DNA from: Schmidtea polychroa
Taxonomy: Eukaryota
Assembly: GCA_044892525.1 (NCBI GenBank)
Contig: CM097885.1
Location: 31,374,001-31,438,000, forward strand
DNA length: 64,000 bases
Direction: 5' to 3'
A model generated the notes under the pieces. It ran no database searches, was not told where the DNA came from, and worked only from the letters and a program-made list of their open reading frames with translations. Made by a program: the position numbers and the translations under genes. Of this stretch, positions 48,901 to 54,900 are shown piece by piece. Within the stretch, counting starts at the first letter, position 1. Each line of letters starts with the position of its first letter.

Positions 48901-51900
48901 ATGGGAAATCCGGAAAGGAATCTTCGTAGAAACAGACATTGGTGAGACAGAAAGTGAATCGGAGGAAGAAGAAGAGGAACCTCCAGAATATGAAGAGGAA
49001 GCAAGGGGACAGACATCAGATGACGAAAGCGAGACGGATGTCACATCAGAAAGCGAAAATGAAGCGAGACATATTCATGCAATGAGGAAAAAGGAACGTG
49101 AATATGCTGATATGGACGGCGAGGAAGCGACGGAAGCAAGAGAACGAGAAGAGACAGAAAGATATAAACAATTAGGCGATATCTTAGCAATGGGAGCGAA
49201 AAATCAAAAACGCCAAGTAGTAGCGTTGGCTAACATCATCTTAAAGACATCAGAGAATATCCACAATCTGAGAGGAATGGCAAAGGCAATAGAGGAATAC
49301 CGGCAATATAATGAATGGTATCCAGAACAGCTAGAACAAATTATTCGAAAATGGAGAAATCAGGAATGGGCACAAGACACCCAGGAGAGGTATCACATCC
49401 GAATCAAGTATCCGGACAAGAGCATCGAGGAACTAGAGGTGCATCCAACAACAAAAATTAGAGAATTAAAAAAGAAATTAGCATATGAAACTCCATTCCA
49501 TCTGCAACTGTTCGGAAAATCACTAGACGATAATGCAGACGTCGGGATAACCCCCATGAGATTGGAAGAGACAAATGTATTAACAATGGCAGAAACGTTG
49601 GGAAAACCGTTAAAAAGGAAAAGTAAAATTATTAAACCAACAAAAGGCAGTTTGAGTACTCCAAGTCCGAACAAAGCACCGAGTAAATCTAATGAAACTG
49701 AAGAAGTTGAAGAGATAATCCTGGAAGATAGTGACGAGGAACCAGGAGAAAGATCACCGCTATTAGTGAGATGGCCGACAGGAGCCGAAATGTGGACTAA
49801 TAACCAGCCATCAACGAGTTATCAACAACCAACGAAACTGAACATCAAAGAAATCATCGACAATACTACGGAAACCGAAACGGAGGAACAATTCCAGAAG
49901 CAAAGAGAACCAACGAAAGTAACACCAGAAAGTCAAACCGACAAAATAATAGACGAATGGAATGAGTGGCTAAGAAATAACGATAGCTCATTACCCAGAA
50001 CGGATAACGAAAGAAATCCGAATTACGAAAATACCAGAGAAGCCGGAACGATGATGGAAAAACGGGCAAAAGGAAGACCTAAGAAACAAGGAGAAAAGTC
50101 TGAGTTCAAAACCAAAGAACAATTAAAGCAAGAACAAGGGCAAGTTCGATTAGGAAAATTGGATAAAATAGTATGGGATCTAAAGGAAGCCCAACCAACG
50201 ATCGAAAGAGGAGAAAAATGGATACGAGAATTGTTAAAAGATATGTTAATAATAACAAACCCACAACTTAGACGTTTGTGGCAACGGAAAGTAGCCAGTA
50301 CGGAAGCTAGACAATTATGGCACACCATTTCGGGGATAATCCCAAAGTTAATCAAAGAGAAAACGAAAACCACCAAAACGGATTGGGACGAAACAAAGAG
50401 AGTGATTGAGCAGCTCACGACAAATGCAAATGATGACGAACATCACCTAGTGGTAATCACTTTTTTGATGTATAATTTGATGGGGCTAGCTGCGAGGAAA
50501 ATACCAAATAAACAGTTTGCAAATCATGTGGAAATGACCGTTTCAATCATAGAGAGTACTATTGAACCACATATTATTCGTGCAGGAGGATGGAAAAGAC
50601 TGATACAAGCGCCACGGAAAAATGAGCAAGAAAGGTCGATGCAAGTTAGATTGAAAAAACTGTTAAATGAACTAGAATGGGAACTACCGATGAAAGATCC
50701 CGCAAGCAGAAAAGCATCAATAAATTCGTTAATGATGACTATGATGATATGGATGTTGTGCACAAGTGGAGCAACAGGTTTCACCATCTACGATTGTGAT
50801 AATATGATAATGAGAGATAAATACTCATTGAGAGACATAGAAGAATGCAGACAAGCCTCACCCAACAAATTGGACATCGTGAGAACAAAAGTTACTTACC
50901 ATGTATATCAAGAATCAGATTTCATCAGAACGCAAGCAAGGGAATGCGTAGTATCAAAAAAGGTACTCGCATATTACTGTGGACAATATTCGTATTCGAC
51001 TCTTATACTACCCGGTCTGGATAAAGAAATCGTATCAATACAACGAGAGGATTGTAAAGAGCTATTTAGAACCGGAGCGCTAAAAATGCATAACGGAGTG
51101 ACAATTCACGGACAAACTGGAATGATTAAAACCGAAAGTGTTTACGTATCCGGAAAAGTAAAATCATCAGATGGGTCATGTAACGGAGGTACGTATACGA
51201 TCCGAGGCGAGGTAATATCGGGAGTTGTAGTGATCGAGTCTTACACGGTCGAATTAAAAGAATACGAAGCGCAATTTGACGCAAATAATTACCAAATGAA
51301 GACCAACCCAGCGTGTAGAGCTACAGAAAACGTATGTAGGACAGGAGTATCAACTATAATCTATGAAGCTAATACCCAAAAATGCCGACTCCAACTGTTA
51401 AAAAGTGCTTTGTTCAATGAAGTAAAAGGAGAAATATATGAGAACGAGAACGACGAGGATGGAAACGACAGAGTGAGAATGCGAAATGGAAAACCAATGC
51501 CACCATCTCCCAGAGAAAAGAGACTTTCAACGCAGAAGACACCAACAGCATTAATCACAGACGATCCAGATCTAGGTATGAGATTTATCAAAGAGAAAGA
51601 AACCACCAAATGTGACAGTATAGTATATAAAACCAATTACGCAGGTATCTATATGTCGAGACAAATAATCGATAGAGCAGTGGGAAAGATAGCAACGGAG
51701 GACGTAAAACTATACTTATATGCAAATAATAAAATGGATTTTCTATTTCATCGTGGACAAACGACCTTGCAAAAAGTATATTACGATCTGATACAAAACG
51801 ATTGTTCATTGAATAAAGAAATATTGAAAACAAAGCTAGCTATTGCGATAACGCACCCAGATAACACGATGCCATCACTCCCACTACCAGATGGACACTT

Positions 51901-54900
51901 TGGTAGAATGGTAGGAGAAGTGATGTACACATACCAGTGTACCAAGACGTATGCACGAATGCCAGAAAAATCCATACTACCCGAAAAGAGATGTGCAAAT
52001 GAATTAGAAATCCGTTATAAAGGACAAAATCGATTCGTCCAACCAGTCACTAGAATTATGAATCCAGTGGGTTTCTACCCAAATCTCTTTAACTGTTCTA
52101 ATGCATACGGACCTTTGTATGAAAGACCCGATGGGAAATGGATGATGTTACCGGGAAAAACCATATCCGAGGAACCCAAGAAATTTGGATTAATAGAACT
52201 CGCCACAGAGCTGGATTTCAAACCTATAGACGTGTCAAACGGTGGTATGTATTCCCCAGAAGATCTAGAAACAGCACGCCTTAACGTACTCTTTCCAGCC
52301 AGACGAGAATCCATTTTGTCAAATATGGTTACAATAACGGGGGGAACAAATTATCAATCAGGCCCGAATTACGAGCTGCTATTATCGCCAGACCATTTTC
52401 AACAAGCTACGTCAAACATGATGAAAGCAATGTGGGGAAGATTCTTAGTTTTTGGACAAATGATGGCCGGGATATTAGGGATCATACTCATAATTCAGAT
52501 AGTCAGAGTAATACTAACACAAATGTTAGCTTGTTTCGATATATACAAGCGGGAAAAGAAAGTTAACTGGAAAATGATAGTAGGTTTCTTACCATTTTTA
52601 GCTAAGACCATGGTATTACATGGCCACTCAAAAGACATTCATCGGATAAAGCGATTGATAAAAATATTAACAAAGATTAAAGGAACCGACGAAGAAGTAG
52701 GCAGACGATTCCGGAAAGTAATGTACGATGAAGCAACAAGACGACAATTGAAAAAGAATAAGCCAAAATTCTTGGACCGATTTAGAAGCCAATCATCTAA
52801 CAGCGATAGTGACGACGATGATAACGGGAACGATAAATGTCTTTATCCAAACAGAAACCCAAACGAAAAACCAATGGAAACGGCACCATATTGGGAAAAG
52901 GAAAAGACAAACACCTGGATCGCCAATGGAAGCTATATACCACCGGATATCGTGGGACCACAAGCAGCTTTGACCATGACACAAAATATGTATCCGCAAT
53001 TACCAAGTCAACCCGGTATGCATTATATGCCAACACGACGTACCAAAAGTGTAGATCAAGCAGATGACGTAAGAACAATAGCAGCGATGAGTTTACCTGG
53101 AGGTCCAGCAGTAACAGTCATGATCCAAATCAATGGTAAAGAAACCAATGCTATGATAGACACGGGAGCTAATGTATCAGCGATAGCGATTAATCAAATC
53201 CCCAGTAAACACTGGAAGGATATCGAATCAACAACAATTCACATCATAGCATGTAGTAAAGAAACAGTGGACGTGGTCGGAAGATGGTGGACTACATTGA
53301 GATACCAGGACAACGAAATTGAAACATATTTGGCAGTAATACCAAAACTTAGCGTACCATGCATAATCGGAACGGATTTGATGCCAGAATTGTTAAAAGA
53401 AGTCGTAATTGACTTAACAACCATGTGTTTAAAAGACAAAACCGGTAGAATATGCAAAATGAATGCAGTAATCAGATGTCCAGAAAAAATAATAGTACCA
53501 GCAAAATCGCAGATGATTTGTCAGATAAAAGTGGATACGGGTATGGAAGGAGAAGTTATCTTTGAACCAAGCAAGTCATTTGAAAAGCGACGAGAATTAC
53601 CACTCGCAAGAGAAATAATCACAATAAACCAAGAAGGAGTGATACCGCTCAACATCACGAATTTCGAAGAGGAAGACAAAATCATTTATGAGAACGAAAA
53701 ATTGGGAAGATTGACCCCAATGATGGACATAGAATTACCGAAAGTGACCAACGAGATGATCAAAGATGATGAATTATGGACAATAGATAGTATGTTGTTG
53801 ACGAATGATGAAAAGAAAAAATTACACCGATTGTTGGTAGAATATAAAGATATATTCGCCATCTCAGACTTAGGCTTGGGTACATGCGATGTTACCCTAC
53901 ATGCAATACCCCTCATAGATGAAACTCCAATTGCATTAAGACCATACAAGCTAGCAGAAATGCAAAAAGAAATAGCCGAAGCAGAAGTACAAAAGATGCT
54001 GGACGCAAAAGTAATCGAACCAAGTTGCTCACCTTGGCAATTCCCAGTGGTCATGGTGAAAAAGAAAGATGGCACCCAACGATTCTGTATCGATTATCGG
54101 AAGTTAAACGCAGTGACCAAGAGAGATACCTATCCATTGCCGGACATCAATGAGATGTTATTGATGTTGCAAGGGGCAGCATATTTTACTTCTTTAGATC
54201 TAAAAAGTGGATACTGGCAGATTAAAGTCAAAGATGAGGACAAAGAGAAAACAGCTTTCACGTTGGGACGAGATCTATATCAATTCAGGAAAATGCCATT
54301 TGGACTGACCAACGCACCAGCATCATTTCAACGGTGTATGAACTTTGTCACCCATGGAATCAAACAATGTATGGTATATATTGATGATTTACTAATCTAT
54401 TCAGCGACATTTGAACAACATCTGGAAGATATCCGAAACGTATTTATTAGATTAAGACAGTGGAAACTCAAACTCAAACCATCAAAATGCGATTGGGCAA
54501 AGGAAAAAGTCACGTTTTTAGGACACATAGTGTCAGCTAAAGGAAAGGAGCCAGATCCAAGAAACATTGAGAAAATAAAAACATGTCCAGCACCGAAAAC
54601 TGTCACCCAAGTTCAGGAATTTCTAGGATTATGCGGATACTATCGCAAATTTATCAAAAATTATGCAGGAATTGCAAAACCAATCCAGGAATTAGTAAAG
54701 AAGGACATTTCGTTCATTTGGGGGAAGGAACAACAAGAGGCGTTCGAAACGCTGAGAGATAAACTAATCGAAGCACCTATCCTCGTACACCCAGATTTTA
54801 AGAAGCCATTTCTATTGGCAACGGATGCAAGCGGGTACGCGGCAGGCGCGATTCTGGGACAATTAGATGATGAAGGAAAAGAGAGAGTAATCGGGTATTA

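Follow-up and report, generated by a model that had tools for sequence, protein, structure and literature searches.

An in-frame class III envelope between Gag and protease in a Burro-type giant Ty3/gypsy element of Schmidtea polychroa, and a possible membrane-threading route for its polyprotein

In retroviruses and most long terminal repeat (LTR) elements, Pol enters the particle as a Gag-Pol fusion. A locus of Schmidtea polychroa (assembly GCA_044892525.1, contig CM097885.1, positions 31,374,001 to 31,438,000 of the forward strand) raises the question of how Gag and Pol are made and brought together when an envelope protein (Env) is lodged between them in the same open reading frame (ORF). 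The whole stretch of 64,000 nucleotides is called the window here, and positions are counted from its first letter. Judged by its sequence, the element that it holds is a young, intact Burro-type giant Ty3/gypsy (Metaviridae) copy with a gB/chuvirus-type envelope and the order GAG-ENV-POL. The answer argued for below is that its polyprotein is probably threaded through the membrane of the endoplasmic reticulum (ER) and cut by signal peptidase, Pol being made on the tail of Env until the element's own protease (PR) releases it. The initial annotation had placed a signal peptide, a Cys-rich ectodomain and a transmembrane (TM) segment upstream of PR within one ORF, and the stop-free frame 45584-59782 confirms this; its Env start at residue 1597 corresponds to nucleotide 50717. 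The parts on which the argument rests are as follows.

38902..42769, + strand: 5' LTR of 3,868 bp with ends TGTTG...CAACA and a 4-bp target-site duplication, CAAC
45584..59782, + strand: single ORF, 4,732 aa between stops; counted from its first Met (45929) it has 4,617 aa
46082..46834, + strand: Gag, with Retrotrans_gag capsid (PF03732, E 3.1e-09) and three CCHC knuckles (PF00098, E 7.7e-10; motifs)
50375..50593, + strand: Bcl-2-like domain with a BH2-like GGW motif, immediately preceding the signal peptide; the PF00452 match, E 0.056, falls short of the cut-off
50717..50779, + strand: predicted internal signal peptide, aa 1597-1617, from hydrophobicity and a motif scan; predicted cleavage after ATG, aa 1615-1617
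50780..52459, + strand: class III (chuvirus-G/gB-like) ectodomain and membrane-proximal region, from PF24664, a structure model and Foldseek
52460..52528, + strand: predicted Env transmembrane helix, aa 2178-2200, Kyte-Doolittle 2.53, followed by basic KREKK
52562..52618, + strand: hydrophobic tail patch WKMIVGFLPFL, conserved and moderately hydrophobic, approximate insertion score +3.5
52619..53116, + strand: predicted cytoplasmic tail and low-complexity linker to the protease; model confidence (pLDDT) <50 at model residues 655-700, ratio of nonsynonymous to synonymous variation (pN/pS) 0.11
53117..55948, + strand: Pol core, comprising PR, reverse transcriptase (RT), RNase H (RH) and integrase (IN), from Pfam and motifs

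The 3' LTR lies just past the window end (L021:818-4685) and is 100% identical to the 5' LTR over 3,868 bp; these identical repeats and the CAAC duplication point to a recent insertion of an intact element of about 29.8 kb. LTRs with TG...CA ends, a target-site duplication and Gag followed by PR-RT-RH-IN are the marks of Ty3/gypsy (Metaviridae) elements. Along the ORF the Pfam order is Retrotrans_gag, CCHC, Monjiviricetes_fusion (PF24664), RVP protease, RT, RNase H, integrase and ankyrin (Pfam residue numbers being one lower than those used here); the gypsy-type set RVT_1, RT_RNaseH, Integrase_H2C2 and Retrotrans_gag is present, and the Pfam scan gave no Pao-type family. Membership in BEL/Pao was rejected because the Pol families are of gypsy type and Env precedes PR, whereas BEL/Pao elements with a chuvirus G carry env after pol. 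The CCHC knuckles occupy aa 252-302, the protease active site DTGA is at aa 2411 (nt 53159) with no stop between it and Env, and the RT motif YIDD is at aa 2817 (nt 54377). About 1,300 residues of cargo, the Bcl-2-like domain included, separate the knuckles from the signal peptide and had been overlooked in the initial annotation; PF00452 reaches E 0.00096 in the homolog P0005, and a ubiquitin-like match in the ORF falls below the cut-off, as the Bcl-2 match does.

By its modelled fold Env is a class III fusogen, with putative fusion activity. Its ectodomain (aa 1618-2177) comprises 560 residues with 14 Cys, one RxKR and one N-glycosylation sequon, at N2055, and PF24664 matches 50717-52816 with E 7.6e-72. 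Searched for exhaustively, relatives number 1,053 at E<=0.001, so the near-blank outcome of a word-indexed homolog search (0 of 6,336 candidates at near lengths, 1 of 6,174 at longer ones) reflects a limit of sensitivity. A single-sequence search of the PDB with Env returned no match; with a profile of 93 family sequences all 34 PDB matches were herpes gB, at weak significance (best E 0.0027). The AlphaFold monomer model (mean pLDDT 84, pTM 0.61) finds its best Foldseek matches in chuvirus-like G (E 1.5e-38, TMq 0.52) and, among solved structures, in herpes gB (E 9.8e-14, TMq 0.35). The proposed homology to chuvirus-G-type fusogens is thereby borne out by Pfam, profile and structure comparison alike. 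An F-type, class I Env was considered and rejected, as the profile matches herpes gB and Foldseek gives chuvirus G and gB.

Where Pol would come to lie depends on the passes of the chain through the membrane. On an approximate insertion scale (values after Hessa et al., weighting our own) the signal of the window element scores +0.3, the Env TM -1.5 and the WKMIVGFLPFL patch +3.5. The patch contains Lys and Pro, and a short basic loop lies between it and the Env TM; its equivalents score +1.7 to +6.9 in the 12 fused relatives that could be scored; for 46 stand-alone G-like proteins the median is +2.6, with 4 of them scoring less than +1. Being found in both sets, it appears to be an inherited feature of the tail, and it is probably a membrane-surface or re-entrant segment rather than a second TM, which points toward non-insertion on a question that had been raised for this sequence. 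With such a non-transmembrane patch the chain would make two passes, leaving both Gag and Pol in the cytosol. The predicted signal-peptidase site points the same way: small residues stand at both -3 and -1 of the mature start in 11 of 12 ectodomains, 24-64% identical, one of them the window Env and the others from fused relatives; at the eight neighbouring registers the count is 0-6 of 12. The two-pass topology with cytosolic Pol, first put forward on the letters of the window, thus gains indirect support, from this pattern and from the non-inserting patch. A protease-site-like motif that recurs at domain borders is further matched 10 times, compared with 2.2 +/- 1.4 in shuffles; it directly precedes both signal peptides, the second of which is described below, and 2 of the 10 occurrences lie inside Env and RT.

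Several observations weigh against this topology and the route built on it. The -3/-1 register and the protease-motif pattern were picked post hoc, and the relatives are kin; by eye, the motif before the signal is not evident in most of them. The patch of P0014 is borderline (+1.5 to +1.7), and the same protein has three hydrophobic segments before Env; P0017 has two, which would break the odd-pass rule if both span. The core helix of the Bcl-2-like domain in the window ORF scores +1.6 and would allow an extra pass, and the AlphaFold model draws the patch as a helix, its placement relative to the membrane not being given. Finally, the copies compared below are top-ranked ones, a sample biased toward intact elements. 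Were the patch a true second TM, or were an upstream helix to add a pass, Pol made from this frame would be luminal and of no use, and active Pol would have to arise by another route. Conservation of the patch in fused and stand-alone proteins, the four low scores among the latter, and gB-type ectodomains that, according to PMC13524379, are in some cases flanked by two TM domains would suit this alternative, but the scores of the patch here and in the fused relatives, its Lys and Pro, the short basic loop and the purifying selection on RT in the same frame make it highly improbable.

Under the two-pass topology, the full-length RNA would be translated into one polyprotein, of which the roughly 1,600 residues of Gag and cargo would be made first, in the cytosol. 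The internal signal peptide would then direct the ribosome to the ER, where signal peptidase would cut after aa 1617; the ectodomain would enter the lumen and the single TM would halt transfer, PR-RT-RH-IN-ankyrin being made on the cytosolic tail of Env. After the ankyrins, a second signal and TM would thread one further small membrane protein. Through the cleaved signal anchor Gag would remain on the membrane, and Pol would be brought to the particle via the Env tail, whereupon the element protease would separate the products, with further cuts probable where each of the two signal peptides faces the cytosol. Flavivirus capsid anchors, which are cut at their cytosolic side, provide a model for such protease release.

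Two consequences would follow from the signal-peptidase cut. Gag and Pol would probably never be part of one chain, and the first cut would yield Gag with its cargo on one side and an Env-Pol fusion on the other, rather than releasing Env alone as the initial annotation had supposed; Pol would thus be packaged via Env or the membrane, and PR would cut Gag in trans. Synthesis from a full-length RNA would be equimolar, which says nothing on the ratio in particles. The companion claim that no frameshift is needed holds so far as a weak test allows: no NPGP motif for 2A recoding was found in the ORF, and its 17 slippery heptamers, against 30.7 +/- 5.5 in codon shuffles, give no frameshift signal.

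It may be asked next whether the single frame is what successful copies carry. In the 781-Mb genome 64 of 2,909 candidate Env matches were scored; all 64 are about 100% identical, and 39 of them, the window copy included, have a frame of exactly 4,732 aa. Eighteen of 20 fetched copies are free of stops across a stretch that opens 100 aa ahead of the signal peptide and ends at the PR active site. Among 30 copies chosen by PR instead (fetched from 150 listed, of 2,492 candidates), 29 carry the Env TM in frame upstream, the exception (L023) being the same frameshifted copy as L010. An assembly artefact or chance was rejected, as many near-identical copies have an equal frame that is open across Env.

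Env is also under strong purifying selection, tighter than that on RT. In 26 of the PR-chosen copies (the window copy and three with >110 mismatches were dropped from the 30), distinct variants in the C-terminal ectodomain half number 48 synonymous and 3 nonsynonymous, a pN/pS of 0.02; the values elsewhere are 0.03 for the TM region, 0.09 for RT, 0.11 for the linker and 0.18 for the PR-RT spacer, all of them rough because the copies are young and top-ranked. Such low values imply that successful copies need the amino acids of Env and not the frame alone; for Env, decayed cargo was rejected on the same ratios.

These copies also bear on the possibility that the ORF is real and its proteins nonetheless come from several RNAs: a Gag-only RNA, spliced or polyadenylated early, that yields excess Gag, an env-skipping Gag-Pol RNA, or an RNA that begins near the signal peptide and yields Env-Pol. 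The 1:1:1 Gag:Env:Pol ratio put forward in the initial annotation would then fail, even if Env-Pol threads the ER. Single-ORF LTR elements such as copia, EVADE and Tf1 obtain excess Gag via spliced RNAs or Pol turnover, copia and EVADE being precedents for this scheme, and the four accessory ORFs downstream of the main one need a separate expression route of some kind. In run X6 one contig breaks off in a loose poly-A end behind 47865, past the Gag knuckles, which would suit a Gag-only RNA if X6 is RNA, itself a guess; it is, however, one contig at an A-rich place, in a run with almost no indexed words, and may be an artefact. Moreover, if an env-skipping RNA were packaged, DNA copies lacking env would be expected, whereas Env stays in frame in 29 of the 30 copies chosen by PR. 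Of 27 joints 15 are shown, and not one of these takes out Env by itself, although they come from contigs, which are unfit to show splicing. One GT..AG joint, 45494-45547, lies upstream of the first Met; it is the only one shown and comes from a sequencing run of unrecorded kind. Expression from several RNAs is on these grounds unlikely, if still to be reckoned with.

Selection on Env could also arise without infection, if the topology is as proposed and Env serves mainly as an internal scaffold that anchors Pol, with budding into the ER or endosomes, fusion within the same cell and no spread. Pol's sole covalent link to the membrane would run through Env, and IAP-type elements do bud into the ER. 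Yet the strongest constraint falls on the luminal ectodomain itself (pN/pS 0.02), and the full class III fold is kept; fusion activity therefore is likely needed, although intracellular and intercellular fusion are not separated by this. A scaffold role as the main one appears improbable.

The order of parts is retained beyond this family, as the initial annotation had proposed to check. The genome contains a second family, at about 34% identity; 7 of its 8 plus-strand loci, among 10 loci, carry the series Bcl-2 motif, signal, Env, TM, PR in one frame, and in 5 of the 7 no stop lies between signal and PR. A third Env-bearing family occurs at G000:C4:18512494-18514605 and two other places, with a Bcl-2-like part aligned upstream. 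Among 25 scanned homologs (14 long top matches and 11 others), 10 have Env followed by an in-frame PR, to which P0009 (E 0.0018) can be added, and five (P0004, P0006, P0009, P0014 and P0017) also have a Gag marker upstream of Env-PR. At least two aspartic-protease-like domains follow Env in P0001, P0002, P0003, P0004, P0008 and P0014; the window element has one.

Downstream of integrase the polyprotein appears to meet the membrane once more, in a signal-plus-TM pair that had escaped the initial annotation.

56852..58102, + strand: two blocks of ankyrin repeats downstream of integrase; PF12796 at E 2.3e-17, along with related families
58769..59638, + strand: second signal-like segment (aa 4281-4300), a Cys-containing domain of about 250 aa, and a predicted TM (aa 4550-4570)

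The product of 58769..59638 would be a putative second type-I membrane protein. All three relatives that extend well beyond integrase (P0002, P0006 and P0013) likewise have two hydrophobic segments there, the second one of P0013 looking more like another signal. The modules span 58769-59638 in the window, aa 2486-2742 in P0002, aa 2257-2561 in P0006 and aa 2780-3134 in P0013; the enclosed domains of 230-330 aa contain Cys and differ between families. BLASTP among the four modules gave no similarity (best E 0.09, in the signal segment). The window module has no Atlas match and no credible Pfam match, and its single-sequence model has a pLDDT of 48. By eye, P0002 and P0006 contain an FN3-like stretch, which Pfam did not confirm.

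With this module added, it is intriguing to hypothesize a polyprotein of flavivirus style with four passes, whose Gag and Pol parts are separated by the signal peptidase of the host while the chain is being made. Pol would be taken into the particle on the tail of a trimeric class III Env instead of as Gag-Pol, Env would be obligatory even for germline transposition, and a swappable surface protein, possibly an attachment partner of the fusogen, would follow integrase. This full scheme is put forward tentatively, as something a little short of probable.

The gene order itself, whose novelty had been implied, is already in print and, being so since 2019, will not surprise a specialist: planarian Burro elements have, according to section 7 of PMC6431247, an in-frame env with gag before it and pol behind it, and the order is described in PMC13524379 too. 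Burro/GYPSM1 elements measure about 30 kb, with long LTRs and a polyprotein of 4.6-5.1 kaa that holds retrotrans_gag, three CCHC, ubiquitin-like, BCL2-like, env, PR, Pol and ankyrins, together with MATH/TRAF cargo (PMC6431247). The window element resembles them in its size of about 30 kb, its single large ORF and its BCL2-like, ubiquitin-like, ankyrin and env domains. It differs in that TRAF/MATH is a separate downstream ORF (60340-61776), that Pfam gives no BIR match and only a RING ORF at 43091, and that ORF1 has 4,617 aa versus 4,873 aa; by these differences in length and domains from the published description it is probably not Burro1 itself. Section 7 of PMC6431247 compares env with class I/F-type proteins and gives no membrane topology, whereas the evidence for the window element favours class III. 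PMC8532177 reports that BURRO1 RNA can be derepressed, its level rising in smedwi-2(RNAi) animals, and PMC11410931 mentions Burro only.

PMC13524379 describes gB-type GAG-ENV-POL errantiviruses in Platyhelminthes, Nematoda and Bryozoa, links their Env to chuvirus G and gives six planarian elements, the planarian members having the cysteine-bridge configuration C1a; Ty3/gypsy Pol, a gB-like Env, the same order and multicopy occurrence are shared by the window element, whose class III gB-like Env precedes Pol and is bounded by a signal peptide and a TM. Its Env equals none of the six planarian sequences, the nearest by eye being Smed_errantivirus_5 (33/62 residues in the stretch counted). The words 'polyprotein', 'in frame', 'frameshift' and 'splic' do not occur in the main text of PMC13524379. 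According to PMC9094657, Atlas virus (Belpaoviridae) has Env within a single stop-free polyprotein of 2,828 aa with Gag and Pol, yet it differs in its Gag-Pol-Env order, its class II fusogen and its BEL/Pao family. An Env inside that polyprotein would likewise have to reach the ER from an internal position; Gag remains attached to Pol there, so Pol would not sit on the Env tail.

An analogue in layout may be sought outside retroelements. In flaviviruses and hepatitis C virus (HCV) the signal peptide of the envelope forms the C-terminal end of the capsid, signal peptidase cuts there, and the enzymes follow the last TM. The signal-peptidase layout proposed here would be comparable by analogy, although those RNA viruses are unrelated and their fusogens are of class II or other kinds, and the window ORF has about 1,600 aa before its first signal. 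Some nematode endogenous retroviruses (ERVs) are said to have a continuous gag-env-pro-pol ORF, much smaller and with another host and cargo. For nematode ERVs with Env before pol, as in the window element, PMC13524379 cites Sacco 2022. A literature search of titles and abstract openings, in which Sacco 2022 and Grohme 2018 were not covered, found the processing of such a polyprotein not addressed. What may be fresh is thus the processing route and the Env-borne packaging of Pol, not the gene order.

Other features accompany the main ORF.

42777..42794, + strand: primer-binding-site-like 18-mer, 7 nt past the 5' LTR

We take this 18-mer to resemble a tRNA-Pro primer-binding site, presumably, the matching tRNA not being confirmed. 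A pattern derived from it matches 2,266 places in the genome, and ARAGORN found no tRNA at the two loci fetched among them; the pattern also matches G000:C1:130901008-130944749, where units of about 475 bp are repeated in tandem and may form a tRNA-like array. The leader upstream of gag contains a tandem repeat of about 74-nt units at 44184-44618. An IAP-type RING protein (43091-43597; PF13920, E 3.7e-11) is encoded upstream of gag, and a TRAF-like RING-MATH protein (60340-61776; PF22486, E 3.4e-27) downstream of the main ORF. Same-strand ORFs at 59916-60302, 61919-63025, 63125-63883 and L021:2-592 have no credible Pfam match; two of them look rich in coiled coil, and L021:2-592 has a hydrophobic segment. 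ORFs of 114 and 264 aa (39741-40085 and 41440-42234, the longer opening like a signal peptide) lie inside the LTR and hence at both ends of the element. In the host flank, near-identical blocks at about 19870-23236 and 26405-29680, some 6.5 kb apart and with long TAT microsatellites, suggest a local tandem duplication.

If signal peptidase does cut between Gag and Pol in this element, packaging and activation of Pol would have to proceed by a route other than Gag-Pol, namely the Env tail. The family is intact, high in copy number and recently active, with Env held more tightly than RT, and this makes the Env-tail route testable. It bears, finally, on whether gB-type errantiviruses need their fusogen for spread in the stem cells of the host.

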